NCBI GenBank assembly: GCA_025062045.1
Contig: JANXAF010000008.1
Span: forward strand, 13,975 to 77,974
From: Thermodesulfobacteriota bacterium
Lineage (GTDB): Bacteria; Desulfobacterota; Syntrophorhabdia; Syntrophorhabdales; JANXAF01
Length of the DNA: 64,000 nucleotides
Direction: 5' to 3'
The translations under genes and the position numbers were made by a program. How positions within the stretch are numbered: position 1 is the stretch's first letter; each line of letters starts with the position of its first letter. This document shows positions 7,962-29,882 of the stretch, in pieces. Below the pieces are notes generated by a model. It was not told the DNA's origin. It ran no database searches and was given only the letters and a program-made list of their open reading frames with translations.

Positions 7962-9383
7962 GAGCATCATCGACTGGCGAACGAGTTCTCGGTAGATAAA
8001 AGCCATTGAGATATCCGTAAGTAGAGGATCAGAAAAGCCTTTAAGGCTCAGCAAGTATTTGAGTTTTTCAAAAGCTAACTGATAAGAAACTTCGTACGGG
8101 GTTAAGTTCTCTACGAGGTAAGTCTGGTATGTCTGCGCCTTTCTCGATAGGAATGTTGAGACAAAAGCTGTCCCAAAACTTCCACCTATATTCCTTATGA
8201 AACTGATTACGGATGTGGCCATCCCCATTTCCTCTTTTTTTACGTCGCTGATTGAAGCAATAGTTAAAGGGATAAAGACGAGGCCCATTCCGAAGCCCAA
8301 TACCACTCTTGGTATCACCAAAGTAACGAAATCTGTATAGAGGTTAAATTTAGACATTTGATAACAGGCAAACGCATTGGTAAGAAGTCCGGCTATCGCA
8401 ATCAAAAGTGGATTGACTCTATTTACGGCTTTTCCCGCAACCCAAAGAGCAACGATCGACATAACACCTCCCGGACCCAAAACGAGTCCTGTAAGGTACG
8501 CAGTGTATCCTAAAAGTTCCTGTAGATATAAAGGTAGTAGAATTATCGTTCCGAAAAGGCAAAAAAAGGTGAAAAAGAGGGCGCCGTTGCCTAAAGAAAA
8601 GCTTCTGTATGTAAAGAGTCGAAGATCAATTACAGGACTTTTGGATTTCAACTCCCAAACTATGAAAGACGAAAGACAAATAGTGGCAACGATCGTAAGA
8701 ACTTGGATTAACCTTGAAGAGAACCAGTCTTTTAGTTGTCCCTGATCCAAAACGATCTGTAAAGCTCCAACCCCACATGAGACTAAGGCTAGGCCTATGT
8801 AATCGATCTTTACCGGAGTCTTTTTTGCCCAGGGTGGATCTTTTATAAAAAGGATGGTCATTAGAATCGATAGTAAACCGATTGGAATGTTGATAAAGAA
8901 GATCCAGTGCCAGGACCAGTTGTCTGTTATATAGCCACCCAGTATCGGACCAATTATAGGTCCGAGTATGACGCCTGTCCCGAAAACTGCCATGGCCGTG
9001 CCTTGTTCTTTTTTAGGGAACGTTTCAAGAAGAATCGCCTGAGAAATAGGCTGCAAACCACCCCCACCAATGCCCTGGAGTATACGAAACAGTACTATTG
9101 AAGGGATGCTCCATGCGATCCCACAGAGAAAGGAACTTAGAGTAAAAAGCGATAGAGAGATAATAAGGTAGTTTTTTCTTCCAAATATTCTGCTTAGCCA
9201 CCCTGTGATAGTCACTATTACCGCGTTCGATACCATGTACATTGTGAGTATCCACGTCGACTCTTCGAAAGCTCCTCCCAAACTACCCCTTATGTGGCCG
9301 AGGGCCACGTTAACTATCGTCATGTCGATTACCTCTACGAGGGTCGGAAGCATAACGGTGAAGGTGACTATCCACTTGTTCAT
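7854..9383 (-). CDS. MFS transporter, DHA2 (EmrB/QacA-like, 14-TM) drug efflux permease
   Basis: 509 aa and very hydrophobic. MFS motif A-like GxLSRIFGRK. Sits in an operon with HlyD- and TolC-family genes. Confidence 0.85.
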   Translation of the reverse strand: MNKWIVTFTVMLPTLVEVIDMTIVNVALGHIRGSLGGAFEESTWILTMYMVSNAVIVTITGWLSRIFGRKNYLIISLSLFTLSSFLCGIAWSIPSIVLFRILQGIGGGGLQPISQAILLETFPKKEQGTAMAVFGTGVILGPIIGPILGGYITDNWSWHWIFFINIPIGLLSILMTILFIKDPPWAKKTPVKIDYIGLALVSCGVGALQIVLDQGQLKDWFSSRLIQVLTIVATICLSSFIVWELKSKSPVIDLRLFTYRSFSLGNGALFFTFFCLFGTIILLPLYLQELLGYTAYLTGLVLGPGGVMSIVALWVAGKAVNRVNPLLIAIAGLLTNAFACYQMSKFNLYTDFVTLVIPRVVLGFGMGLVFIPLTIASISDVKKEEMGMATSVISFIRNIGGSFGTAFVSTFLSRKAQTYQTYLVENLTPYEVSYQLAFEKLKYLLSLKGFSDPLLTDISMAFIYRELVRQSMMLSINTVFLTLGSFFIIGVALIVIMGKTGQPKDSHLI

Positions 9384-9401
9384 AGGGGACTTAAAGATTC
9401 C

Positions 9402-10460
9402 CTATTTGACTATTATTGTTGGAACACACGACATTCCAATGCGCAAAAGCGCCTTCTTTTTTGGATCCTCATCAAAGACTATCTTCACAGGAATCCTTTG
9501 CACAACCTTTACCCAGTTTCCTGTAGCATTCTCAGGTGGAAATAAAGAAAAGGAGGCCCCTGTGCCGGCCATTATCGAATCTACCTTTCCCTCAAAGACG
9601 ATCCCCGGATAGGAATCTACCTTTATCTTTACTTTCTGTCCCGGTTTTATCTTCTCTATCTGCGTCTCCTTATAGTTCGCAACTACCCAGAGATCGTCAA
9701 GGGATACAAGGGCCATAAGCGGTTGTCCTGGCTGAATCTGATTGCCTTTCTCGACCGACTTTTTGGTCACATATCCATCGGCTGGAGCAACTATTTTCGC
9801 ATAGCTTTTTTTAAGTTTAGCCTCTCCGAGTGTAGCTTCCCTAAGCAGGATTGCTGCTTTTTGAGTTTTTACCGTATTGTTTAGCTGCTCTATTTGAAGG
9901 AGCAGAGTCTCCCTTTGAGCCTCAAGCTGTTTTATCCTTTCTTTTATTGCCTTTAGGGTCGTTCGACTTACGTTGTAGGATGTAAGGGCCTTCTCATACC
10001 TTTCCTTAGGGATCGCCTCCTTTTTGAAAAGATTTTCAGCTCTTTCATAATCGATTCTTGCCTGCTCCATAAGGTAGGTCTGAACCTCCATCTGGGCTTT
10101 TTCGGCCTCAATTGCAGCATCAATCTCAGAAAGCTTTTGTTTAAGGATCAAAACGTTACTTTCGATTTCTGTAAGGCGTCTCTTTTCGATCTCATAGGCG
10201 GCCTCTGCCTCTTTGACCTTATAGTCGTAGTCTTTCTCATCTATCTCCAAAAGTACATCCCCTTTCTTTACGAGTCTATTATCTTCAACGTAAACGGCCT
10301 TCACCGTTCCAGGAACCTTTGACGAAATAATATGGATCCTTCCTTCCACGTACGCATTATCGGTAGTTATGTGGGTCTTTCGATAATGAAGGTAGTATAA
10401 GACAGAAATCACAAGCACAAAGAGCGCACCAATGAGAATGCTTACGCGGACTTTACTCAT
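9402..10460 (-). CDS. HlyD/EmrA-family membrane-fusion (periplasmic adaptor) protein
   Basis: 352 aa with an N-terminal TM helix, a long coiled-coil (EAE.../LEAQ...) and beta-barrel/lipoyl-like flanks. 4-nt overlap with the TolC-like gene. Confidence 0.85.
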   Translation of the reverse strand: MSKVRVSILIGALFVLVISVLYYLHYRKTHITTDNAYVEGRIHIISSKVPGTVKAVYVEDNRLVKKGDVLLEIDEKDYDYKVKEAEAAYEIEKRRLTEIESNVLILKQKLSEIDAAIEAEKAQMEVQTYLMEQARIDYERAENLFKKEAIPKERYEKALTSYNVSRTTLKAIKERIKQLEAQRETLLLQIEQLNNTVKTQKAAILLREATLGEAKLKKSYAKIVAPADGYVTKKSVEKGNQIQPGQPLMALVSLDDLWVVANYKETQIEKIKPGQKVKIKVDSYPGIVFEGKVDSIMAGTGASFSLFPPENATGNWVKVVQRIPVKIVFDEDPKKKALLRIGMSCVPTIIVK

Positions 10461-11882: not shown

Positions 11883-13352
11883 TTAGAAAGAGTTTGGTCC
11901 ATGAGAGCTTGTGGGAGTCTTTCTATCTATTGCGGACTTCAATATTGTAATAGCGGTATCCAGGGAGTTTTGAAGTGAGAAAGAAAGGGCCTCGTCTTTT
12001 GGATTCTTAGGACCTATCCCAGATCTTTTGAGGTCTTCTATGAGTCCTACCCCCTTGACCATACTATCCAAATCTTGCCACAACACCAAACATTCCCACA
12101 TGATTTCCCTTACGGCTCTTAGGATCTCTTTTCGCCTACTTGTGCCGTAATTTAGACGTGGAAGTTCCATGTCTACCAGTTCTGGCTTTGGTATTTCTCT
12201 TCTTTTTGCGTAGCTTGCCGCTGAAATTCCGGCTATTTTTCCAAAAACTATCGCTTCTGTGAGCGCATTTCCACCAAGCCGATTCATTCCGTGCAAGCCA
12301 CAGGTTACTTCCCCTGCCGCAAAAAGACCGGGTTTTTCCGTCTCGCACCTTTCATTTATTGGAATCCCTCCTATCGTGAAATGGGCACAAGGTGTTATTC
12401 TTAGTAGTCGACTGCTTGCGCCGTACCTATCCCGGATGAAGGAAAGAGCCTCTTTTTCCGTTTCTGAAAGGACACTTTCGTCTATCTTTCGCAAATCAAC
12501 ATAAACCTTATGGCCCTTTCTTATCTCGTTAAATATAGCCTCTGAAAACTTATCCCTGGCCCTAATAGCCAAAGGTCGTAGACTAGAAAGTCGATACTTC
12601 TCAACTATATCTTCATTTTTTTCGTTTACTACGCGGGATAGCTCTAGTATGTAAGGTGGACATATGATCCTCGGAAGCCTCTCTTCCCGTATTTGGGCGG
12701 GGTAAAACTGGATGAGATCCATGTCTTTTAATTTAACACCCACCCTTTGAGCAAGGGCATATCCGTCACCCAAATTCCCTGATGGGTTGTCATGAAACTT
12801 AAACAGGGCAGAGGCGCCTCCTGTGGCCATGATAACAGCCTTTGAGAAGCAGGCGACTCTTTTTCCGGAAGATAGGACGAAAATGGCACCACAAATACTA
12901 TCCCCATGATCAAGCAATTTCACTGAAACTGCATATTCTAGCTTTTTAGCACCCCAAGAAAGAGTAGCTTTGAGAACCTTATCGATCACACTTCTGCCGA
13001 CAGTTGGAAACCTTCCTTTAGCCATGACCTGATACTTTCCAACTTCGAAATTCACACCATAAGCTTTCAACTCTTCTATCGCTTTGGGAGCCTCCTCCGC
13101 CAAAATCTTAACGAGTACAGGATCATTTTTGTAGCGGCCGGTATTAAGTGTCTTTTCGATATGTTCTTCTACTGTCATTCCATAATTCGATGTGGCAAAA
13201 GCACCAAGACTTAAAGATGAGGACGTACCTAATCCGATCTTGGCCTTAGAAGCAATGGTGGTCGATACACCTTCTTTCGCAGCGGATAGGCAGGCCATAA
13301 GCCCAGAAAGCCCCCCTCCTACTATCAAAACGTCCGTCTTTATGAGATCCAT
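11883..13352 (-). CDS. FAD-dependent oxidoreductase, SdhA/FrdA/NadB superfamily (divergent)
   Basis: 489 aa. Contains DVLIVGGGLSGL (dinucleotide fold), ATGGAS...NPxGxxGDG, AHFTIGGI and GLFAAGEV..GLHGxNRLGGNAL. Lacks the usual H-P-T and R-G-E-G signatures (it has FYPAQI). Starts 8 nt after the ABC ATPase stop. Confidence 0.7.
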   Translation of the reverse strand: MDLIKTDVLIVGGGLSGLMACLSAAKEGVSTTIASKAKIGLGTSSSLSLGAFATSNYGMTVEEHIEKTLNTGRYKNDPVLVKILAEEAPKAIEELKAYGVNFEVGKYQVMAKGRFPTVGRSVIDKVLKATLSWGAKKLEYAVSVKLLDHGDSICGAIFVLSSGKRVACFSKAVIMATGGASALFKFHDNPSGNLGDGYALAQRVGVKLKDMDLIQFYPAQIREERLPRIICPPYILELSRVVNEKNEDIVEKYRLSSLRPLAIRARDKFSEAIFNEIRKGHKVYVDLRKIDESVLSETEKEALSFIRDRYGASSRLLRITPCAHFTIGGIPINERCETEKPGLFAAGEVTCGLHGMNRLGGNALTEAIVFGKIAGISAASYAKRREIPKPELVDMELPRLNYGTSRRKEILRAVREIMWECLVLWQDLDSMVKGVGLIEDLKRSGIGPKNPKDEALSFSLQNSLDTAITILKSAIDRKTPTSSHGPNSF

Positions 13353-19244: not shown

Positions 19245-21236
19245 TCATTTACTTGCCATTGCAACTATTTCTGCCACATCAAAAACCCGCACTTTTCCAG
19301 AGACATTGAGGTCTTTTAATCCATCCTCAAACATCGTCATGCAGTAAGGACAGGATACTGCTATGGTTTGTGGATTTTTTGACAAAGCTTCTTTTGTCCT
19401 TTCTATGTTTACCCTTTTTTCTGGGTCCTCCTCCATCCACATCCTTCCACCGCCTGCACCGCAGCAGAAACTCTTATCGTAATTACGATCCATCTCGTAG
19501 ATCCTTCCTCCTACAGCCTTTTTCAAAAGATTGCGCGGTGCTTCATATATTCCGTTGTACCTCCCTAGGTAGCAAGGGTCATGGAAAATTATCTTTCCCA
19601 GGTGTTTTATTTTTGTAGGATCAAGTTCTATCGCTTTTAAATTATCCCATATGACCTCCGTATAATGGAATACCTCTAATTCCAGTCCGTACTGCTTATA
19701 GTCGTTTTTTAACGTCGAGTAACAGTGGGGACAGTAACAGATGATCTTTTTAACGTTATATTTTTTGAAGGTTTCTACGTTCTGGATCGCGAGTTTCTCA
19801 AAGAGGTATTCGTTTCCAAGGCGCCTTGCGGAATCGCCGCAGCATTTTTCTTCCACCCCTAAAATCCCAAAATCTACTCCCATATGATTTAAAGTATCTG
19901 CGACAGAAACCGCAACCCTCTTTGTTCTGCTGTCAAAAGATCCAGCACAACCTACAAAGAAGAGATACTCAGCCTGAACTTCCTGCGAAAGTACCTTTAC
20001 ATCCAACCCCTTTGCCCATTTAATCCGTTCGGAAGGAGCCATGCCCCAAGGGTTAAACCTCTGTTCCATCCCCTCAAAAAGCACAATGAGTTCCTGGGGA
20101 AAATCACACAGGTTTTCAACAAGATGGCGTCTCATCTTTATTATCTTTGGTACATGTTCAATAAAGACTGGACAGTTCCCCATACAGGCAGCGCATGTGG
20201 TACATGACCAAATTGACTCAACACCAATCGTAGCAGGGTGATCTTCGTCTTTACCGATAAGAGGCACAAGCTCGGCTTCTGGGGCTTTGTATCTTATCCG
20301 ATCACCATTCCAAATAAGGTTCATTTTCCCCTTGTAAATTACGATTCTTGGATTGAGGGGTTTTTTTGTGAGATATGCGGGGCAGTTGGATGTGCAGCGG
20401 CCACATTCAGTACAGGATGTAAAATCCAAAAGATCTTTCCAGGTGAACTGATCTACCCTTGAAACTCCGAACCTTTTTCCCCGTCTGAACTCTTCCCTTG
20501 GCACCGTTTTTATTAGCTCAAAAGACCTAAAAAAAATGTTGGGAATCGAAGTCAGAATGTGGAGGTGCTTACTATACGGAACGTAGTTGAGGAAGAATAG
20601 TAGAATCATTGCGTGAAACCACCAGCATATCCTTTCAAAAACAGAAAGTGAATCAGAAAAGAAAGATAAAAGGAGAGGAGCGACCAAATTCTCACTTATC
20701 GGCATAAAATGGGCTTCCTTTTTGCCCTGGGCTATCTCTGCACCGTGAGTACCGAAAAAGGCGAGCATAAGCCCCGCAACAAGTCCAAGGATCAAAAGCG
20801 CATCCTTACTTTTGTAGTCGATATGCGAAGGTTTTAGGACGAGTCGCCTAAAAATGGCGAAAGCGACACATATGAGGACTATTAGGCTTACAATGTCAAA
20901 AGCCACTAAGAGAACATTGTAGATATATGGGCCAAATAGCACCAATGAAAAGCCGGGAAAGAGTCCTCCTATTAAAAATTCCACGTTTGCTATAATCAAG
21001 ATCATAAACCCCCAGAAAAGAAAAAAATGATTTATCCCGAAAGGTTCTCTTAAAGCACATCTTTGTCCAAATACATGCCATATTGTACTGATCAACCGTT
21101 TGGTCAGATCTTTATTTATCCTCTGTTCTTTCTGTCCTATGCGTATAAATCTTATGAGCCTAGTCACTGAAAGAGCAAAAGAAAAGATTGCAATTGTAAG
21201 TACGATTGCAAAAATGACTACCTCTTTCTGTGACAT
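19245..21236 (-). CDS. Membrane-bound Fe-S oxidoreductase: N-terminal multi-TM (NarI/DsrM-like) domain fused to 2x[4Fe-4S] ferredoxin and two CCG (HdrD/DsrK/GlpC-like) domains; candidate ETF:menaquinone oxidoreductase
   Basis: 663 aa with ~5-6 N-terminal TM helices ending in YSKHLH. Contains CTECGRCTSNCP and CTTCAACMGNCP, then CCG-type motifs (VGCAGSFD, EKCCGDS, HDPCYLGR, SFCCGAGGG). Lies directly downstream of etfBA. Confidence 0.75.
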   Translation of the reverse strand: MSQKEVVIFAIVLTIAIFSFALSVTRLIRFIRIGQKEQRINKDLTKRLISTIWHVFGQRCALREPFGINHFFLFWGFMILIIANVEFLIGGLFPGFSLVLFGPYIYNVLLVAFDIVSLIVLICVAFAIFRRLVLKPSHIDYKSKDALLILGLVAGLMLAFFGTHGAEIAQGKKEAHFMPISENLVAPLLLSFFSDSLSVFERICWWFHAMILLFFLNYVPYSKHLHILTSIPNIFFRSFELIKTVPREEFRRGKRFGVSRVDQFTWKDLLDFTSCTECGRCTSNCPAYLTKKPLNPRIVIYKGKMNLIWNGDRIRYKAPEAELVPLIGKDEDHPATIGVESIWSCTTCAACMGNCPVFIEHVPKIIKMRRHLVENLCDFPQELIVLFEGMEQRFNPWGMAPSERIKWAKGLDVKVLSQEVQAEYLFFVGCAGSFDSRTKRVAVSVADTLNHMGVDFGILGVEEKCCGDSARRLGNEYLFEKLAIQNVETFKKYNVKKIICYCPHCYSTLKNDYKQYGLELEVFHYTEVIWDNLKAIELDPTKIKHLGKIIFHDPCYLGRYNGIYEAPRNLLKKAVGGRIYEMDRNYDKSFCCGAGGGRMWMEEDPEKRVNIERTKEALSKNPQTIAVSCPYCMTMFEDGLKDLNVSGKVRVFDVAEIVAMASK

Positions 21237-21275
21237 GATAAAACTCCCACGCGTTTATTTATTTTTATTGAAGGA

Positions 21276-22625
21276 CTATTCCCCTACGGCACAGACTTTT
21301 TTATTCATAAGTTCCCTAAGACGTCTCGTAAGGATAGGTACTATCTGGAAGAGGTCACCTACTATCCCGTAATGGGCCACCTCAAATATGGGTGCATCTC
21401 TGTCCCTATTTATGGCTATTATGATTTGAGAGTCCTGCATACCAACGAGATGCTGAATGGCTCCTGAGATTCCACAGGCTATGTATATCTTAGGCCTTAC
21501 GGTCTTTCCAGTTTGCCCTACCTGCCTTTCGTAAGGTACCCATCCCGCATCCACAGCCGCCCTTGACGCCGATACGGTACCACCTAATACCTCCGCTAGT
21601 TCTTCGAGAAGTTTGAAGTTTTCAGCCGCTTGTAGACCTCTTCCACCGGAAACCAGTATTTCCGCACCAGATATATCTATGGTTTGAACTGCTTCCTCCC
21701 GTGTGATCTCCAAAACTTTAACCTTTATTTCTTCTTCCCTTAAGGCAATCTCTTCTCTTATAATCTCACCCTTTGCGTTTGGATTTTTTGGCGGCATAGG
21801 CATAACATGCGGTCTTACTGATGCCATCTGTGGTCTATGGTTCCGCGTAAGTATCGTTGCCATAATATTCCCACCAAATGCAGGTCGGGTCTGCTCCAAA
21901 AGCCTTGTCTCTTTGTCTATAGTGAGGCCGGTACAGTCTGCGGTAAGACCAGTCTCGAGCTCGGTCGCAACCGCTCCCGCAAGATCACGCCCCAACCCCG
22001 TAGCTCCCATAAGTACGATTTCTGGTTTGTACTTCCTTATTAGGTAGACCGTAGCTTTTAAGTAAGGTTCAGTTCTATAGTGTTTTAGGACAGGGTTGTC
22101 TATAAGATAAACTTTCTGTGCCCCGTATGTGAATGCCTCGTAAGCAAGATGCTCTATTTCGTGTCCGAGAATAAAGGCGCTCAACTCCACATCAAGGTCT
22201 TTTGCGAGTTTTGATCCGACACCCAAAAGCTCCCAGCTTACTGTCGCGGCACATCCGAACTCCTGCTCCACAAATACCCAGACCCCCCGATACTCATTCA
22301 GCCCTTTGACTTTTAGATCCAGTTTTTCTTCCGGCTCCTCTTTCCAAAGCCCTCTACTTTTTAATTCCTCTATGATCTTCAGTTCTTCCTCAGTGTAAAA
22401 GTGCTCTATTGCGTCAACCGGGCATACTTTTATGCACCTTTTGCAACCTATACATGCGTCGAGTGATATGATTGGTTCGCCCTTGTCATTCATTACGATC
22501 GCATCGGCCGGGCACTCGGCCTGGCATCTGGCTCCGCAAGCTATGCATTTATTCTCGATAAGTCTTACCTTTCCTCTTGGTTTTTTTACTCTTTCTCTTT
22601 TTTCTTCCAGTCCCATATCTTTCAC
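21276..22625 (-). CDS. etfA: Electron transfer flavoprotein alpha subunit with N-terminal 2x[4Fe-4S] ferredoxin domain
   Basis: 449 aa. N-terminus has CIACGARCQAECP and CIGCKRCIKVCP. The C-terminal half has the ETF-alpha FAD-binding signature (SASRAAVDAGW, QVGQTGKTV.P, YIACGISGAIQH). Confidence 0.85.
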   Translation of the reverse strand: MKDMGLEEKRERVKKPRGKVRLIENKCIACGARCQAECPADAIVMNDKGEPIISLDACIGCKRCIKVCPVDAIEHFYTEEELKIIEELKSRGLWKEEPEEKLDLKVKGLNEYRGVWVFVEQEFGCAATVSWELLGVGSKLAKDLDVELSAFILGHEIEHLAYEAFTYGAQKVYLIDNPVLKHYRTEPYLKATVYLIRKYKPEIVLMGATGLGRDLAGAVATELETGLTADCTGLTIDKETRLLEQTRPAFGGNIMATILTRNHRPQMASVRPHVMPMPPKNPNAKGEIIREEIALREEEIKVKVLEITREEAVQTIDISGAEILVSGGRGLQAAENFKLLEELAEVLGGTVSASRAAVDAGWVPYERQVGQTGKTVRPKIYIACGISGAIQHLVGMQDSQIIIAINRDRDAPIFEVAHYGIVGDLFQIVPILTRRLRELMNKKVCAVGE

Positions 22626-22630
22626 TACTC

Positions 22631-23458
22631 CTAGAGAGGAAGAATGTCTTTTTCGATAAGCTTTTCTAACAAGAGCTCAACCGCTCCTTCCGGATCGGCT
22701 TCTCCATCGCCTAGAATCTCTCCCCTTTTCCTCTCAGGTGCAAAGATCCGTTTTACATTTGTTGGGGAACCTTTAAGTCCTATTTTGTCCTCCGGCAGAT
22801 TAAGAACTGAGTTACTCCAAACTGGAATCTCTGCTTCTTCCGCCTCGAGAGCCCTTAAAACCGTAAAGTAACGCGGGGTATTTATCTCTCTTACTACTGT
22901 AAGGAGTGCTGGTAGACTTGCTCTAACTATCTCTTTTCTTCCTTCGAGCTTCCTTCTTACCGTGATCGTGTATTGAACTAAATCAATGTCAAGTATTTTG
23001 TCCACAAGTGTTAGCTGAGAGAACCTAAGTCTTGTCGCTATGCCTGGGCCGACTTGAGCGGTATCTCCATCTATCGTTTGTTTGCCACATATTACAAGAT
23101 CGACTCTCCCATACTCAGCCATAATCTTCTTTATAGCTTCTGCGAGGACAAGGCTTGTGGCAAGGGTATCTGCACCCGCAAATTTTATGTCAGAAAGAAG
23201 TATAGCCTCATCCACGCCCATCGCTAAACATCTTTTCAGTGTGTATATCGCATTGGGAGGTCCCATAGATATGGCTATAACTTTACAGCCAAAGGCGTCT
23301 TTAATCCTTAAGGCCTCTTCCACAGCGTGGGTATCGAAAGGATTCATAATGAAAGGAACGCCTTCTCTTATTAAGGTTCCGGTATTTGGATCGACCCGAA
23401 CCTGCGTTGTGTCAGGAACCTGTTTCACTGCAACTACGATTCTATTTAGTGTTCTCAT
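22631..23458 (-). CDS. etfB: Electron transfer flavoprotein beta subunit
   Basis: 275 aa. N-terminus has the VAVKQVPD motif, and the DLVICGKQTIDGDTAQVGP region is typical of EtfB. Confidence 0.85.
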   Translation of the reverse strand: MRTLNRIVVAVKQVPDTTQVRVDPNTGTLIREGVPFIMNPFDTHAVEEALRIKDAFGCKVIAISMGPPNAIYTLKRCLAMGVDEAILLSDIKFAGADTLATSLVLAEAIKKIMAEYGRVDLVICGKQTIDGDTAQVGPGIATRLRFSQLTLVDKILDIDLVQYTITVRRKLEGRKEIVRASLPALLTVVREINTPRYFTVLRALEAEEAEIPVWSNSVLNLPEDKIGLKGSPTNVKRIFAPERKRGEILGDGEADPEGAVELLLEKLIEKDILPL

Positions 23459-23590: not shown

Positions 23591-24559
23591 ATGGAGAAAA
23601 TGAAGATCCTTATTACGGGTGGATGCGGATTTATAGGTTCGCATGTAGTAGACTTCTACATTGAATTGGGCCACGATGTTGCAATCGTTGACAACCTCTC
23701 TACAGGAAAGATTGAAAACAAAAATCCCAAAGCCCGCTTCTACCACGTAGATATAACAGACGATGCGCTAAAAGACGTTTTTGAAGCAGAAAATCCTGAT
23801 GTTGTTAATCATCATGCGGCTCAGATATCTGTTCCTTATTCAGTAGAAAATCCTTTATTCGATGCGAAAGTGAACATCGAAGGCACAATAAGGCTTTTGG
23901 AACTTTCAAGAAAGTACAGAATAAAAAAGTTCATATTCGCATCAACGGGTGGTGCCATATACGGGGAAACAAGCGTAGTTCCAACAGATGAGGACTTAAC
24001 TCCTGATCCAAGATCGCCATATGCGGTGTCTAAACTTGCGTGCGAAAGATATATTCTCTTCTACTATTATCACTACGGCCTCAATTTCACCATTTTGAGA
24101 TACAGTAACGTTTACGGGCCTAGACAGATCCCCCACGGAGAAGCAGGCGTTGTTGCGATATTCATCGAAAAGCTCCTTCGCAAAGAAAGGCCTGTTCTTT
24201 ACCATTATCCCGAAGACGAAGACGGAATGGTAAGGGATTACGTATACGTTAAGGATGTGGCAAAAGCGAATGTACTTGCAACGTTTTCCGGAAAGAATGG
24301 GATCTACAACATAAGTACCGGCACTGGAACGAAAACGATTAAGCTCTACAACCAAATTCTTGAAGCTTTAACCGAAAGGGGTTTGGAGATAAGCAAAGAA
24401 TTGAAGGAACCGATAAGGGCTTTTGCGAGACCTGGAGATCTGAAAGTGAGTGTTCTAAGTCCAAAAAAGGCAAAAGAGGAGCTTAGTTGGCACCCAGAGC
24501 ATGACCTTCCTCTGGGACTGAGAAAGACCTTAACGTGGTATCTGGATGGTAAGGATTAA
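23591..24559 (+). CDS. NAD-dependent epimerase/dehydratase (extended SDR, UDP-glucose 4-epimerase-like)
   Basis: 322 aa with ILITGGCGFIGSH (Rossmann) and the YAVSK catalytic motif. Confidence 0.85.
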   Translation: MEKMKILITGGCGFIGSHVVDFYIELGHDVAIVDNLSTGKIENKNPKARFYHVDITDDALKDVFEAENPDVVNHHAAQISVPYSVENPLFDAKVNIEGTIRLLELSRKYRIKKFIFASTGGAIYGETSVVPTDEDLTPDPRSPYAVSKLACERYILFYYYHYGLNFTILRYSNVYGPRQIPHGEAGVVAIFIEKLLRKERPVLYHYPEDEDGMVRDYVYVKDVAKANVLATFSGKNGIYNISTGTGTKTIKLYNQILEALTERGLEISKELKEPIRAFARPGDLKVSVLSPKKAKEELSWHPEHDLPLGLRKTLTWYLDGKD

Positions 24560-25277
24560 ATTTTTAGGAACGGGGACTTCTTATCCAACCTCCAAAAGGG
24601 TTTCATCCTCGTGCCTTATCTTCGTCGACGAGAAGAAGTTACTCCTCGATATCGGTCCTGGCGTACTTCGCAGGCTCACTGAGATGAATATCCCACTGGA
24701 GGAAATAGATATCGTTTTTCTCACACATTTCCATGTGGACCACTCTTCCGACCTTCCCGCATTTCTTTTCTCCTCCAATTATGGCATGGGACCCAGAAAA
24801 AGACCCCTTTTTATAATCGGTGGTGATGGCGTAAAGTCCTTTTTTTCAAAACTTTGTAAGGCTTATCCTTGGATTAAACCGAAAACCTATACCTTAACGA
24901 TCTTAAAACTTGTCAACCGAAGTTATGAGTGGAACGGGATCTTAATAAGTACAAAGAGGGTAAACCACAATAAAGAAAGTATAGCCATCCGATTGGATAC
25001 TTCTGTTTCTCTAGTATTTACCGGGGATACGGATTTTTCTAAGAACTTGATCGAAATTTCTAGAGGCGTTGATCTTCTCATTACCGAATGCTCTTTTCCT
25101 CGGACGAAGATTAAAGGCCATATGAACCTTGAAACAGTAAAAAAGGTAGTTTGTAAGGCAAAGCCTAAGGAAGTCATTTTGACACATCTCTACCCTGAAT
25201 GGGATGAAATCAAATGTGACAAGCTTGCGCCTTTTAGACTCGCCGAAGATGGGATGGAGATAGTTTTTGGTGACTAG
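24546..25277 (+). CDS. MBL-fold metallo-hydrolase (RNase Z/ElaC-like)
   Basis: 243 aa with THFHVDHSSD (H-x-H-x-D-H). 14-nt overlap with the epimerase gene. Confidence 0.75.
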   Translation: MVRIKFLGTGTSYPTSKRVSSSCLIFVDEKKLLLDIGPGVLRRLTEMNIPLEEIDIVFLTHFHVDHSSDLPAFLFSSNYGMGPRKRPLFIIGGDGVKSFFSKLCKAYPWIKPKTYTLTILKLVNRSYEWNGILISTKRVNHNKESIAIRLDTSVSLVFTGDTDFSKNLIEISRGVDLLITECSFPRTKIKGHMNLETVKKVVCKAKPKEVILTHLYPEWDEIKCDKLAPFRLAEDGMEIVFGD

Positions 25278-25528
25278 TCAAGATAAGGCACCTTTTCATC
25301 CTCTTTATCAACACTCATGCTCTGAACCCTTTTTATCTCTTTGAGCTTCATCCATATGATGACAATGAGAGCTAAAATGAAGATCCAAAATAGAGCCAAC
25401 GATTGGTAAATAATGTATCTGTCGAAGGGCCTTTCTGGCATAAGAGGGATCACCTCACTAGCGTAACCCAAATGGGGCCAAAATAGAGAAACTGTAAGTA
25501 AAATGACACTAACAATCAAAAAGCTCAT
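25274..25528 (-). CDS. Small two-TM membrane protein, last gene of the sdh-Rieske-cytochrome b operon
   Basis: 84 aa with two hydrophobic helices and an acidic C-terminus. No CxxCH. ATGA overlap with the cytochrome b stop. Confidence 0.5.
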   Translation of the reverse strand: MSFLIVSVILLTVSLFWPHLGYASEVIPLMPERPFDRYIIYQSLALFWIFILALIVIIWMKLKEIKRVQSMSVDKEDEKVPYLD

Positions 25529-26625
25529 GTCACAAACCCGAGTATGGTCATAACGATAAAATAAACGAGGTAAAAAGTTCCAATAGCGGTATATACAGGG
25601 CTTTTCTCACCCATACTCGATTTTCTATCGAAAAAGGGGATAAGGAGGAAAAATAGTATCGCAAGAGTGACAAGAGTTACCGCCACAGTTTCTCCGTTAA
25701 GTCCTAAAACCTCTCCAGGAAAGATTTTTAACGTTTGAAACAAAAAGAGGAAATACCATTCTGGCTTTATATTTTCAGGCGGAGGGGCGTACGGATCAGC
25801 CTTCTTTCCGAGAGATGGGGGAAAAAGAACGGAAAGTGTCACAAGAATCCCTAAAAAGATCAGCCAGATCATGAGATCTTTCAAAAATACGTTAGGAAAG
25901 AAAGGAATTTTGTCCACCCTTTTCCCTTCAAGAGAAAGAGGAACGCTCATTCCGTGGAATTGAACCAAAGCAATGTGAAAAACTACTAGAAAAACTGTAA
26001 TGAGGGGAAGTATACACACATGGAAAGCATAAAATCTCGTCAGAGTCTCTCCCGTAACGTCTGCTCCGCCTCTTAAAAAGACCTTTAGGTATTCCCCGAA
26101 GAGAGGTAGACTACCAGCTCCTCCTGTGGCAACTCTCACAGCCGCAAAAGCCCTTTCATCCCAAATGAGAAGATAACCGCTGAGCCCGAAAAAGATCGTT
26201 ATTCCAAGAAGAAGAACACCGCTTACCCAGATAAGTTCACGAGGTTTTCTGTATGACTTTAGCAAAAGAGTGGTAAAGCAGTGAAAAAAGAGGACTCCAA
26301 TGAGAAGCTGGGCACCCCAATGGTGTAAAGACCGGAAAAGCCAACCGAAGTTGAGCTTGGTGATGATATCCATTACACTTTTGTTTGCGTGCTCAGGATG
26401 GGGAACGTAGTAAAGCGCAAGAGCAAATCCGGTAAGAAACTGTAAGGCAAACAAAAATAGGGTCAGTCCGCCGAAATAATAGAATATCTCGTACCTGTGG
26501 GAAGGGACATATTTCTTTTTAAAGAACCATTTTAGTGACTCAAAATCGTATCTTTCGGAAAACCAGTTTCTAACTTTTTGGCAATTCAACTTTGACTCCT
26601 TTTTTCGCCACAATGAGCTTTTCAT
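25525..26625 (-). CDS. Cytochrome b of a Rieske/cytochrome b complex (b6-like core fused to a subunit-IV-like C-terminal part)
   Basis: The ORF is 366 aa. Helix-B His pair is H-x13-H (LHHWGAQLLIGVLFFH) and helix-D His pair is H-x14-H (FHVCILPLITVFLVVFH). A PEWY motif is present (KPEWYFLF). The likely true start is TTG at 26589, preceded by AAGGAG 6 nt upstream, giving (M)NCQKVRNWFSERY. Confidence 0.85.
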   Translation of the reverse strand: MKSSLWRKKESKLNCQKVRNWFSERYDFESLKWFFKKKYVPSHRYEIFYYFGGLTLFLFALQFLTGFALALYYVPHPEHANKSVMDIITKLNFGWLFRSLHHWGAQLLIGVLFFHCFTTLLLKSYRKPRELIWVSGVLLLGITIFFGLSGYLLIWDERAFAAVRVATGGAGSLPLFGEYLKVFLRGGADVTGETLTRFYAFHVCILPLITVFLVVFHIALVQFHGMSVPLSLEGKRVDKIPFFPNVFLKDLMIWLIFLGILVTLSVLFPPSLGKKADPYAPPPENIKPEWYFLFLFQTLKIFPGEVLGLNGETVAVTLVTLAILFFLLIPFFDRKSSMGEKSPVYTAIGTFYLVYFIVMTILGFVT

Positions 26626-27040
26626 CTTCTATTGTAATATCAAAGAACTCCAAAGGCTTAGGTGGTGGACCCTCTATGTTCTTCCCATCCTCATCGAACC
26701 AGCCTTTGTGGCAGGCGCAGTAAAACTTCTTCAGCTCCGGTTTGTAGGTGATATTACAGTCCATATGCGTACACACACCTTTGAGAGCGTAAAGTGTTCC
26801 ATCGCTCTTTTTAAATATGAGCCCCAGTTTTGCACCCCAAGGGAAAGGTTTTGTGGAATTATTCGGGATATTCAAAAAATCCTTCGCGTTAAGTACGACA
26901 AAGTCGGGCTCCCTTCCCAAGCTCGGATAAATAAACTTTAAAAGAGGGTACAGGGACCCCAAACAAAAAGCCACAAACCATCCTGAAAAGAGCGTATTTA
27001 AAAAAGTTCTTCTTGTGATTATCGATTGCTCTAACCTCAT
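26570..27040 (-). CDS. Rieske [2Fe-2S] protein with twin-arginine signal/anchor
   Basis: 156 aa. TRRTFL Tat motif plus a hydrophobic helix. Rieske boxes CTHMDC and CACHKGWF. ATGA overlap with the sdhB stop. Confidence 0.85.
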   Translation of the reverse strand: MRLEQSIITRRTFLNTLFSGWFVAFCLGSLYPLLKFIYPSLGREPDFVVLNAKDFLNIPNNSTKPFPWGAKLGLIFKKSDGTLYALKGVCTHMDCNITYKPELKKFYCACHKGWFDEDGKNIEGPPPKPLEFFDITIEDEKLIVAKKGVKVELPKS

Positions 27041-27771
27041 TTTCTGTCCTTTCCAAAAAGTCTCAACTTAATGAGCCTTTTTCTGAGATTCACTATGGAA
27101 TCCGTAGGTCTCACATTTTTTGGACAGGCTTCGATACACTTCAAAACAGTATCACAGCCCCAAAGACCGTGTGGATTATCAAATTCGAGAAGGTCGGACA
27201 GGGGTCTTTCATCCCTTGAATCACTGATAAAACGCTCAAGCTTTGCGAAAGCGTGCGGTCCAAGATATTCCGGATCGCGGGCGACAACAGGACACGCACT
27301 GTAGCAAGAAGCGCAAAGTATGCAGTTTACGAACTGGTCTATTCTCTTCCTCTCCTCTTCACTCTGCGGTAACTCTTTTTGGGGCGACGGAGTTTTTCTT
27401 ATGAGGTACGGCTTTACTCTTTCGTACATCCTCCAAAAGGGGGTCATATCGACAACCAGATCTTTTATGATATCTAAATTCGGCAAGGGCTCTAGGATTA
27501 TTGTTTTTTCGTCGAATTTCGAGACCTGCGTTCTACACGCAAGATCTATCTTTCCGTTTATAACCATTGCACAGGAACCACACACTGCACTTCGACAAGA
27601 GGACCTAAAAGCGAGTGTGCCGTCTATCTCATCCCGTATCCTTAATAGCACCATAAGAACAGTGAGACCAGGCTCCACCCTAACATCGTAAGTTTGAAAG
27701 TATGGACCACTTTCTCGCTCGGATGGGTCGTATCTAAATATTTTGAACCTATATACGTTCTCCCCTCTCAA
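27037..27771 (-). CDS. sdhB: Succinate dehydrogenase / fumarate reductase iron-sulfur subunit
   Basis: 244 aa with [22 protein letters not shown] (2Fe-2S), [12 protein letters not shown] (4Fe-4S) and [12 protein letters not shown] (3Fe-4S). TTG start overlaps the sdhA stop (TTGA), with GGAGAGGG upstream. Confidence 0.9.
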
Positions 27772-29474
27772 TACACCCTCTCCACAGGCTCAAACCTCGT
27801 TATTATCACGTCTTTATATGAGACTTCCGGTTCCCCATCCTCATTGAATTTGAATACCGTGTGTTTTAGCCAATTCTTATCATCTCTTTTCTCCCAGTCC
27901 CTCCTGAAATGAGCGCCCCTGCTTTCTTTTCTAAGGTAAGCACCAAGTGCAATTGTATGGGCCACATCTAGCATGAATTCGAGTTCTAAGGCTCCCGTAA
28001 GTTCATAATTGAAAGCTCTTCTCCTCGAGCTTACTTTTACGTTCTTGTATCTCTCTTTCAGCTCCATGATCTTCGTTAAAGCAAATTTTAGCTGTTCCTC
28101 GGTTCTGAAAATTCCCACATACTCGCTCATCGTCTTACTCAGTTCCACTTGAATCTTTGAAGCCTTCTCGCCTTCGCCATTCATAAGCCTTTCTATCTTT
28201 TTTTCCAACCTTTTCTTTTCCTCTAACAAAAGCCCTCGGTCAGGTTTTACTTCGTTCCCACAAAGATACTCCGATATGGATTCTGAGGCTATCTTTCCGA
28301 ATACTACAGTTTCCAAAAGAGAATTCCCGCCAAGTCTATTTGCACCATGAACACTCACGCACGCACATTCTCCCGCTGCAAAAAAATTTCTAAGTGCTGT
28401 TTCACATTTCTCATTAGTATCTATTCCTCCCATGGAATAATGTTGACAGGGCATTACCGGTATTGGTTCGTACACTGGATCTATACCTAAGAAGTCAAGA
28501 CAAATGCTTCTTATGCCCGGTAACCTCTCCATTATCTTTTTTTCTCCGAGATGCCTCAGGTCTAGTAAAACGTATTTACCATGGGGGTGGTCGAATCCTC
28601 TTCCCTCTTCTATCTCTGTCTGAATGCTCCTTGAAACTATGTCTCTGGGAGCGAGTTCCATAGCTATGGGGGCATATTTTTCCATGAATCTTTCGCCAAG
28701 CCTGTTTATAAGGTACCCGCCTTCTCCCCTGCAGGCCTCAGTCATGAGGATGTTCGTCCCTACGAGACCCGTTGGATGGAACTGTACAAATTCCATATCT
28801 TTAAGTGGCACACCCGCCCTATAGGCTATCCCTATACCGGAGCCAGTATTTATGAGCGCATTTGTCGAGTAATAGTAGACCCTTCCGTAGCCACCTGTGG
28901 CAAAAAGCACAGCCTTTGCAGCGCACGGTACAATTTCACCTGTGAGAAGGTCGAAGGCTATCACCCCGTGGCAAGTAATTCCATCACTTACAAGCGCAAA
29001 AACGTACCACTCGGGATAAACTTTAAGCCTTTTTGAAATCGCTCTCTCAAAAAGGGTATGGAGGAGGACGTGTCCTGTAAGGTCAGCAGAATAACAGGTT
29101 CGCGGAAATCCAGCACCTCCGAAAGGTCTCTGGGCAATGGAGCCATCTGGAAATCGACTAAACGGGCAACCCCAGTGCTCAAGCTCGTAAATTGCCCGCG
29201 GAGCATCTTTACACATTATTTCAACTGCGTGCTGGTCTGCTAAATAATCACTTCCTTTTACTGTATCGAACATGTGTTTTTCCCAAGAGTCGTCCCTTCC
29301 CTCTGGGTGATTTCCTAAAGACGCGTTTATTCCACCTTGGGCTGCAACCGAATGTGAACGAAGGGGATAGACTTTCGAAATCAAACCAACATCGTATTTC
29401 TCGCAAAGACCCACCGCCGCTCTGAGTCCCGCAAGACCGCCTCCTACTATTATTACTTCGTGCTCAATCATCAA
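27768..29474 (-). CDS. sdhA: Succinate dehydrogenase / fumarate reductase flavoprotein subunit
   Basis: 568 aa. Contains [24 protein letters not shown] (covalent-FAD His), [16 protein letters not shown] and HYSMGG. No signal peptide. Confidence 0.95.
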
Positions 29475-29789
29475 CTATGAGAATAAGGCGTAGAGATAAA
29501 TTAAAACCAATGAGATTATTCCGGCTAGCGCATTCGAAGCGATAAAGAGCTTTTTTTCGTTCCTGTAACCCAAATCTAGCACTATATTGCGGATACCGTA
29601 TACGCTATGGAAGGTGAAAAGAACAAGAATGAGAATATCCATCGCCGGATTCCTATGGAGGCTTAACGCCCAATCAGGCTTGGCATCCTTAGTAAAAAGA
29701 AAGAAACTTGTAAAAATCTTTATCCCGAAAAGGATAAGAAGGGCAACTCCACTTATTCTGTGGAAGAGCCATATGAACATGGCTTTCAA
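29475..29789 (-). CDS. sdhC: Short (3-TM) succinate dehydrogenase/fumarate reductase membrane-anchor subunit
   Basis: 104-aa ORF (TTG) or 101 aa from the ATG at 29780. Three hydrophobic helices with His residues (FHRISG, LHRNP, FHSVYG). Directly abuts the sdhA start. It is the only anchor-like gene upstream of sdhA. Confidence 0.65.
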   Translation of the reverse strand: MKAMFIWLFHRISGVALLILFGIKIFTSFFLFTKDAKPDWALSLHRNPAMDILILVLFTFHSVYGIRNIVLDLGYRNEKKLFIASNALAGIISLVLIYLYALFS

Positions 29790-29818
29790 TTAGTAACAGT
29801 TAATGGAACTTGAGTCAA
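29790..29818 (-). promoter_or_regulatory. Putative promoter of the sdh-Rieske-cytochrome b operon
   Basis: Minus strand: TTGACT (29818..29813), 17 nt, TACTAA (29795..29790), 9 nt, ATG at 29780. No SD. The -35 element is embedded in the palindrome CTTGAcTCAAG. Confidence 0.35.
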
Positions 29819-29835
29819 GAATTTTTTATGAAAGC

Positions 29836-29865
29836 TTGATGGAGTATCAGGGTTTTCTGTATAAT
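29836..29865 (+). promoter_or_regulatory. Putative promoter of the FmdB-like gene (leadered)
   Basis: TTGATG (29836..29841), 18 nt, TATAAT (29860..29865). GAGGTG SD lies 8 nt before the ATG at 29883. Confidence 0.45.
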
Positions 29866-29882
29866 GAAAGAGGTGCTTTTAT

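Follow-up and report, generated by a model that had tools for sequence, protein, structure and literature searches.

A conserved operon in syntrophic Thermodesulfobacteriota links succinate dehydrogenase to a Rieske/cytochrome b module and may encode a Q-cycle-coupled complex II

Introduction

What would a succinate dehydrogenase do with a Rieske/cytochrome b module whose genes overlap its own? The question is raised by a locus in a 64-kb stretch of DNA from a Thermodesulfobacteriota bacterium (64,000 nt of contig JANXAF010000008.1, hereafter the window), in which sdhC, sdhA and sdhB are followed without a break by the genes for a Rieske [2Fe-2S] protein, a cytochrome b and a small membrane protein of 84 aa, here called p84. 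How cells oxidise succinate (+30 mV) by means of low-potential naphthoquinones has long been a puzzle of bioenergetics, above all in syntrophs, whose metabolism runs close to the thermodynamic limit and which drive the formation of methane in sediments and digesters. A full-text literature search, with subscription papers outside its scope, found no description of an sdhCAB-Rieske-cytochrome b operon. We report that the arrangement is conserved across related species and that it stands where related Rieske/cytochrome b pairs have a multihaem cytochrome c. As a tentative reading, which we prefer without regarding it as established, SdhCAB may have replaced cytochrome c as the redox partner of the Rieske protein, giving a succinate:(methyl)menaquinone oxidoreductase that would run in both directions by means of a Q cycle.

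Results

The six open reading frames (ORFs) lie back to back on the minus strand from 29789 to 25274, in the order sdhC, sdhA, sdhB, Rieske, cytochrome b, p84. In the databases, the window also corresponds to contig JAVQSP010000003.1 (assembly GCA_033581755.1), from a metagenome-assembled genome recorded as 'Desulfobacterota bacterium'. The features of the locus are as follows.

29475..29780, minus strand: sdhC, the only three-helix membrane anchor, 101 aa from ATG 29780
27768..29471, minus strand: sdhA, flavoprotein subunit, 567 aa from ATG 29471; the ORF opens at TTG 29474
27037..27771, minus strand: sdhB, iron-sulfur subunit, 244 aa
26570..27040, minus strand: Rieske [2Fe-2S] protein, 156 aa, with an uncleaved N-terminal anchor of the twin-arginine translocation (Tat) type
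25525..26589, minus strand: cytochrome b, fused b6 plus subunit-IV type, 354 aa from TTG 26589
25274..25528, minus strand: p84, clade-specific small membrane subunit, 84 aa
29781..29882, no strand assigned: divergent intergenic region of 102 nt, in which the operon promoter must sit

A preliminary description of this DNA had placed the six ORFs at these coordinates and on this strand, where we find them as well, together with the expected Pfam and NCBIfam domains. The junctions it had listed can all be read from the letters: the sdhC stop codon TAG is directly followed by the TTG-ATG of sdhA, leaving a spacer of 0 or 3 nt depending on the start chosen, sdhA and sdhB overlap as TTGA, sdhB/Rieske and cytochrome b/p84 as ATGA, and the Rieske and cytochrome b genes overlap by 20 nt (TTG 26589) or 56 nt (ATG 26625). 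With the starts used here, spacers measure 0–3 nt and overlaps 4–20 nt. Cytochrome b starts at TTG 26589, giving 354 aa, because this codon is preceded by an AAGGAG Shine-Dalgarno sequence 7 nt upstream, is also the start annotated by NCBI and yields the overlap of 20 nt that is kept in related loci. Although the sdhC ORF can be extended to TTG 29789 (104 aa), its start is most likely ATG 29780, giving 101 aa as in 71 loci, and that of sdhA is most likely ATG 29471.

A scan with an alignment of cytochrome b homologues, restricted to one genome per GTDB species, yielded 80 further loci and hence at least 80 species, whose gene content was determined by tblastn with the six window proteins. As far as each contig reaches, all 80 related species carry sdhC-sdhA-sdhB-Rieske-cytochrome b-p84 in the same order, including the sdhB-Rieske adjacency for which a synteny search had been proposed. 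Among the carriers are the cultured Syntrophorhabdus aromaticivorans UI and metagenome-assembled genomes (MAGs) named Syntrophorhabdus, Syntrophus, Syntrophaceae, Smithellaceae and Syntrophales, so that the loci span two classes of Thermodesulfobacteriota, Syntrophorhabdia and Syntrophia. Look-ups started from SdhC lead back to the same operon, and the family is abundant in public metagenomes, with 543 SdhC-type and 773 p84-type sequence clusters.

The spacing is conserved along with the order. Measured over 82 loci, the median distances are +2 nt for sdhC/sdhA, -4 nt for sdhA/sdhB and +11 nt for cytochrome b/p84. The sdhB/Rieske junction has a median of -4 nt, is -4 or -11 nearly everywhere and lies at or below 10 nt in 94% of loci; for Rieske/cytochrome b the median is -20 nt and 89% of loci lie at or below 10 nt, nearly all of them at exactly -20. 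Outliers are mostly long-read MAGs with evident frameshifts. Junctions and conservation together bear out the earlier view of a tightly coupled single unit, and since the adjacency is conserved, the six genes very probably form an obligate functional unit.

For comparison we sampled the sister clade of the cytochrome b, namely 80 metagenomic loci (L085–L164) whose cytochrome b is 43–52% identical to that of the window. An exhaustive search of representatives separates the two groups: the closest full-length cytochrome b representatives outside the operon clade are at most 48% identical, members of the clade at least 61%. Both clades share the Rieske-then-cytochrome b order, a fused b6/subunit-IV cytochrome b with the PEWY motif, and a low-potential-type Rieske protein in which Gly replaces the Ser of box II. 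The sister clade, from uncultured soil and sediment bacteria, keeps the box II Tyr and has a multihaem cytochrome c adjacent or fused, whereas in the operon clade the pair is preceded by sdhCAB and followed by p84, no cytochrome c is encoded nearby and the Tyr is replaced by Phe. None of the 80 sister loci encodes sdhA, sdhB, sdhC or p84, and sdh genes are likewise missing from all 37 in which at least 2.5 kb of upstream sequence is present. The arrangement is far beyond chance, being found in 80/80 related species and in 0/80 sister loci.

The cytochrome c follows the opposite distribution. Within 2.5 kb of the Rieske-cytochrome b pair, 54 of the 59 sister loci with enough flanking sequence carry a same-strand ORF with at least four CxxCH haem c-binding motifs, typically of about 420 aa with about nine such motifs, and some outgroup cytochrome b proteins form fusions with a multihaem cytochrome c or bear an extra C-terminal helix. 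By contrast, no ORF with two or more CxxCH occurs within ±7 kb in any of the 81 operon-clade loci, so that the c-type cytochrome subunit typical of Rieske/cytochrome b complexes is not encoded with the core, and in the whole window no ORF of at least 60 aa has even a single CxxCH. In short, sdhCAB and p84 occur where the cytochrome c disappears.

This replacement bears on a more conventional view of the locus, in which two ordinary complexes are merely co-expressed and communicate only via the (methyl)menaquinone pool, SdhCAB working at a conventional quinone site and the Rieske/cytochrome b/p84 part feeding a soluble periplasmic carrier encoded elsewhere, for instance for oxygen or nitrite detoxification or extracellular electron transfer. 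We consider this rather unlikely, if by no means negligible. Operon linkage by itself is no proof of contact, and an acceptor could be encoded elsewhere, the genome having been covered only around the loci; yet this view has to accommodate both the coincidence of cytochrome c loss (81/81 operon loci) with the appearance of sdhCAB and p84 and an sdhB/Rieske overlap that is retained across two classes.

The soluble half of the dehydrogenase is unremarkable. SdhA contains PF00890 and PF02910 and scores 800.9 bits against TIGR01812 (cutoff 567); it has the covalent-FAD His motif SHSVAAQGG, with an SQR-type Gln (SQR, succinate:quinone oxidoreductase), as well as FHPTG, CRGEGG, HYSMGG and GANRLGG, and accordingly presents both the covalent-FAD His and the catalytic His/Arg of a complex II flavoprotein. 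SdhB (PF13085 plus a 4Fe-4S domain; NF004616 with 278.6 bits, cutoff 228) has all three cluster motifs of the family, C59x4Cx2Cx11C, C150x2Cx2Cx3CP and C206x5Cx3CP, and its best PDB matches are mitochondrial SdhB, E. coli SdhB and the SdhB of 6LUM. By these domains and motifs, SdhAB is a typical complex II pair. The absence of export signals on both subunits, noted before, is confirmed, the SdhA N-terminus having no twin-arginine motif. A periplasmic SdhAB of the methylmenaquinol:fumarate reductase (MFR) type was considered and rejected: NF042982 gives 553 against a cutoff of 1100 and NF042952 132 against 600, and the MFR enzymes (SdhABE, Campylobacterota) differ in that their anchor is of the SdhE type and their flavoprotein bears a Tat signal, whereas the SdhA of the operon has no such arginine pair.

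At the proximal quinone site, which in E. coli includes SdhB W164/H207 and SdhC S27/R31, the SdhC Arg is kept (R8/R11). SdhB has other residues in place of W164 and H207, and the one that stands for the latter, Asp207, is conserved in at least 98% of 77 family sequences; menaquinone-type enzymes differ at these SdhB positions too.

It is the membrane anchor that departs from known enzymes. SdhC matches PF01127 (E=1e-9) and reaches 44.8 bits against TIGR02970, under the cutoff of 52.3, and NCBI annotates it, like p84, as a hypothetical protein. Its AlphaFold2 model (pLDDT 93) shows the SdhC/SdhD fold with three transmembrane (TM) helices and a short periplasmic helix, and the best Foldseek matches are SdhC of E. 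coli and SdhC of M. smegmatis Sdh2 (TM-score 0.69–0.79). Invariant in the family are, in 101-aa numbering, H7, R8, K21, H42, R43 and H58. The proximal haem His in TM2 is kept. Profile alignment places the invariant mid-TM1 Lys, K21, at the TM1 His of both SdhC and SdhD of 6LUM, and these two His residues are presumably the distal-haem ligands of the dihaem class; SdhC therefore does not have the TM1 distal-haem His of class A dihaem SQRs. The periplasmic loop D32–D48 (PDWALSLHRxP..D) is conserved as well, with 13 of 17 positions invariant, including H42 and R43.

A search of the 80 loci for a further conserved anchor ORF of 70 aa or more found none, so sdhD is not encoded in or beside the operon, and none of the 120 best SdhC matches is a fusion protein. 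Described complete anchors consist of two 3-TM subunits (classes A, C and D), one subunit with 5–6 TM helices (B and F) or SdhE/F (E) (PMC10238741), so the lone 101-aa 3-TM SdhC fits no described complex II anchor class. For two ordinary complexes sharing only the quinone pool this is a difficulty, since an SdhC that lacks SdhD matches no complete anchor described, even though it keeps the HRxSG motif and the proximal-haem His of canonical anchors. The preliminary description had held direct electron transfer between SdhCAB and the Rieske protein to be unlikely and had preferred the quinone pool as the link; because cytochrome c is replaced by sdhCAB and p84, and because SdhC is a lone anchor, the comparative data tend to point the opposite way.

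Rieske proteins of bc1 and b6f complexes have a Ser and a Tyr in box II that hydrogen-bond the cluster and raise its potential, as is known from site-directed work. The Rieske protein of the operon (PF00355) aligns with b6f Rieske proteins over the TM helix, the hinge and the cluster domain and has the motifs RRTFL (10–14), CTHMDC (90–95) and CACHKGWF (108–115). The CxHxxC...CxCH ligands, the disulfide Cys pair and the Tat/TM anchor are conserved in 81 sequences, and the Tat signal recognised earlier is a family trait, in the form (S/T)RRxFLN. Box I bears an acidic residue in the operon clade, CTHM(E/D)C, and box II reads C(A/P)CH(K/Q)GWF in 77 of the 81 sequences. Compared with CPCHGSQY in b6f and CACHNGxY in the sister clade, the CACH(K/Q)GWF of the operon clade has lost both hydrogen-bond donors (Ser to Gly, Tyr to Phe). 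We infer that the potential of this cluster would be unusually low, which would suit a low-potential quinone and a partner near the fumarate/succinate couple.

Cytochrome b (PF00033 and PF00032) matches cytochrome b6 with E=4e-54 and subunit IV with about 1e-9. The haem ligands H89, H103, H190 and H205 are invariant and have b6-type spacing, the Qo motif PEWY lies at 276–279 and is present in 80 of 81 family sequences; facing the cytoplasmic (N) side, H212 never varies and Q210 hardly does. PEWY, the four His ligands and Q210/H212 indicate a working Q-cycle core. That the cytochrome b looks complete in this sense would equally fit two separate complexes joined by the quinone pool. A b6f-type haem ci was rejected as a candidate: Tyr takes the position of b6 Cys35 (FYYFGG against FYCLGG), and no Cys stands there in the 60 of 81 sequences in which the motif was recovered. 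The Rieske/cytochrome b pair is a true family member, but it lacks the cytochrome c of the family.

The same residues speak to the notion that the pair is a decaying remnant or a non-redox scaffold and that SdhCAB alone is the working enzyme. The lack of a cytochrome c partner nearby would fit, but across 80 species there is little or no variation in the four haem His residues, PEWY, both Rieske boxes with the disulfide Cys and the Tat motif. The mean divergence of Rieske and cytochrome b equals that of SdhA and SdhB (about 0.33–0.35), a sign of equal purifying selection on the four proteins. On these grounds gene decay was rejected; we regard it as very improbable indeed.

The product of the last gene has a signal peptide of the Sec type, a single TM helix and, on the cytoplasmic side, a conserved tail, KLxEIxRxQ...PxLD; Pfam, NCBIfam and PDB chains gave no match for this protein. 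p84 is present in 78 of the 80 related loci, always following cytochrome b, and as far as sampled it is found only in the sdh-type operon. Among the 120 listed members of its family of 773, lengths are 72–100 aa, mostly around 82, and none is a fusion. Its similarity to the C-terminal extra helix of sister-clade cytochrome b is weak (hhalign probability 15% and 0.5%), and a role as cytochrome c was rejected, as p84 has no Cys.

Partnerships were also gauged by mirror-tree partial correlations over 54 species, a weak method. Known partners score 0.66 (SdhA-SdhB), 0.33 (SdhB-SdhC) and 0.33 (Rieske-cytochrome b). SdhC is closest to the Rieske protein at 0.40 (95% interval 0.19–0.59); other values are 0.32 for SdhC-p84, 0.29 for cytochrome b-p84, 0.32 for SdhA-cytochrome b, 0.07 for SdhB-cytochrome b and 0.08 for SdhC-cytochrome b. 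For a link between SdhC and the Rieske protein these values are suggestive.

They also bear on a coupling on the opposite side of the membrane, where SdhAB, held by SdhC and the p84 tail, would exchange electrons with haem bH or the Qi site. The Rieske/cytochrome b complexes of anammox bacteria have been proposed to feed a cytoplasmic flavoprotein from their b haems. In Mitchell's original Q cycle, the second electron at centre N comes from a dehydrogenase (PMC5600118). Such a route meets no topology problem, SdhB and haem bH both facing the N side, and the conserved cytoplasmic tail of p84 and the SdhA-cytochrome b covariation would fit it. However, it leaves the Rieske centre without acceptor or donor and the loss of cytochrome c unexplained, the SdhB-cytochrome b and SdhC-cytochrome b covariation is near zero, and the strongly conserved SdhC loop is periplasmic rather than cytoplasmic. 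We judge this coupling improbable.

The surroundings of the operon add few constant elements. The preliminary description had seen a promoter-like element before sdhC, which proves weak: a -35-like TTGACT lies at 29818–29813, the -10 at a spacing of 17 nt is TACTAA with a 3/6 match, and a consensus scan detected no promoter on the minus strand ahead of sdhC. Within 29781–29882 the single promoter-like site that it reports (29836–29865) is on the plus strand and faces the divergent gene of a 117-aa Zn-ribbon protein (PF09723; 29883–30236, plus strand), which shares the intergenic region with the operon. At the other end, the convergent gene said to close the operon is real: an MBL-fold gene (PF23023/PF00753; 24546–25277, plus strand) overlaps the p84 stop by 4 nt, which leaves no space for a terminator hairpin. 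Together with a neighbouring epimerase gene (23591–24559, plus strand) it is retained downstream in about 20 related loci.

Within ±7 kb of the 80 loci, neither sdhD nor a cytochrome c nor any further conserved partner was found, except for one gene. It encodes a cytoplasmic protein of about 630 aa without Pfam hit or CxxCH and lies on the same strand, about 30 nt after p84, in 41 of the 80 related loci, mainly in records named Syntrophorhabdus (L003, 8349–10241; L018, S. aromaticivorans UI, 8361–10262); it is absent from the window.

In the window itself, 1.8 kb downstream of the operon and on the same strand (19245–23458, minus), genes for EtfB, an FeS-fused EtfA and a 663-aa Fer4+CCG membrane Fe-S oxidoreductase resemble the Syntrophus system known as EMO, the ETF (electron-transferring flavoprotein):methylmenaquinone oxidoreductase; this adjacency is unconserved in the 80 related loci. 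A second SdhA/NadB-like flavoprotein, a 489-aa FAD_binding_2 (PF00890) protein, is encoded at 11883–13352 (minus strand) and adjoins an ABC transporter and an outer-membrane efflux gene.

Discussion

How might such an operon work? In the reading that we tentatively prefer, the six gene products would form one composite membrane enzyme. SdhC, probably paired with itself or with p84, would span the membrane and link the periplasmic Rieske cluster to cytoplasmic SdhB, and electrons would pass between the FAD/SdhB Fe-S clusters and the Rieske [2Fe-2S] cluster via one or more haems in SdhC, while quinone chemistry would be left to the Qo and Qi sites of cytochrome b. With a little more reserve still, one may see here a new class of complex II, whose quinone-reactive part would be the Rieske/cytochrome b Q-cycle module, reached via the transmembrane SdhC.

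During succinate oxidation, the proton-motive force (pmf) would drive a reverse Q cycle: at Qo, quinone would be reduced by one electron from the Rieske cluster and one from haem bL, the latter being fed by quinol oxidation at Qi. Together with the transfer from N-side SdhB to the Rieske protein on the periplasmic (P) side, this would spend up to 4 charges per 2 electrons. At low pmf or with excess fumarate, the enzyme would run forward as an energy-conserving fumarate reductase. That bc-type complexes can run in reverse is known (PMC5861303).

Energetically, such a device could be of use. Electron transfer from succinate (+30 mV) to menaquinone (-74 mV) is 104 mV uphill, and to a methylmenaquinone such as that of the related Syntrophus, at about -150 mV (PMC8805022), it is about 180 mV uphill. 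For two electrons in the latter case, 4 charges would exceed the required 360 meV at any pmf above about 90 mV, while the 2 charges of a conventional dihaem reverse redox loop would be marginal; under a pmf lower than that, the enzyme would turn to energy-conserving fumarate reduction. The gap of about 180 mV also counts against separate complexes connected by the pool alone, as the reaction cannot run at an uncoupled N-side site. A Q-cycle contribution of the pmf that offsets the endergonic step from succinate to menaquinone had been offered as one possible link in the preliminary description, and in this respect it came close to the reading favoured here.

Several points weigh against that reading. 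The association of the subunits, the haem in SdhC and the electron transfer between SdhC and the Rieske protein are predictions from the genes. A lone mid-membrane haem would be too far from the periplasmic Rieske cluster, and with Lys in place of the distal-haem His, a second haem would need unusual ligation, by H42 or the Lys. Because SdhC retains the HRxSG motif of canonical quinone-site anchors, it may have an ordinary proximal quinone site, and the Rieske acceptor may be encoded elsewhere in the genome, outside the window. Spending 4 charges per 2 electrons is costly for organisms near the thermodynamic limit, the carriers degrade benzoate, other aromatics and fatty acids without obvious catabolic succinate oxidation, and the quinone potential is taken from relatives rather than from the window organism.

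Among known systems, anammox bacteria (Kuenenia) have Rieske/cytochrome b complexes with an extra flavoprotein and HAO-like subunits, for which a diversion of Q-cycle electrons has been proposed. These clusters resemble the operon in encoding a Rieske/cytochrome b core together with an unrelated redox module, but they retain multihaem cytochromes c, their flavoprotein is of the NAD(P) type where the operon has SdhAB, and they belong to another taxonomic group. The bc1 and b6f complexes (b6f, PDB 1VF5/2E74; Aquifex bc1, 6KLS) likewise have a Tat-anchored Rieske protein, a pair of bis-His haems spaced as in b6 and the PEWY motif at Qo; in contrast to them, the operon module has no cytochrome c1, f or dihaem c encoded nearby and no haem ci Cys, both Rieske hydrogen-bond donors are replaced, and its genes are joined to those of a complex II.

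Class C and A SQRs (E. coli, 1NEK; M. smegmatis Sdh2, 6LUM) have the same Gram-negative/mitochondrial type of SdhA and SdhB, a three-helix SdhC and the TM2 haem His, but two 3-TM anchors (plus the single-pass SdhF in Sdh2) where the operon encodes one; the class A distal-haem His is an invariant Lys in the operon, and the SdhB W164/H207 equivalents are replaced.

In proposed function, the closest likeness is to the pmf-dependent dihaem SQRs of Bacillus subtilis, Desulfovibrio and Pelotomaculum, which carry out endergonic succinate oxidation by a low-potential naphthoquinone. Reduction of menaquinone by succinate driven by the membrane potential, in a reverse redox loop, is described in PMC10308238 and PMC12663545, with Zaunmüller 2006 as a further reference. 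Their anchor has 5 TM helices and a distal quinone site, and about 2 H+ are used for every 2 electrons, whereas the proposal here involves the Rieske/cytochrome b module and up to 4 charges. A pmf-driven reverse Q cycle is likewise found in the reverse bc1 complexes of Acidithiobacillus ferrooxidans and nitrite oxidisers (PMC5861303), and a physical association of complexes II and III2 in the megacomplexes of Tetrahymena (PMC10227065). In both of these, unlike the operon, complexes II and III are complete and separately encoded, each with its own anchors and with cytochrome c1.

Conclusion

The cultured carrier S. aromaticivorans UI makes the idea directly testable, and two of the six subunits concerned are at present annotated only as hypothetical proteins. 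If true, this would be the first Rieske/cytochrome b complex with a succinate/fumarate flavoenzyme, rather than a cytochrome or cupredoxin, as its high-potential partner, and a natural merger of complexes II and III in one enzyme. Uphill succinate oxidation would then have a new solution in a succinate dehydrogenase coupled to a Q cycle, by which syntrophs would interconvert succinate and fumarate with a very low-potential (methyl)menaquinone, at the cost or to the gain of up to 4 H+ per 2 electrons.

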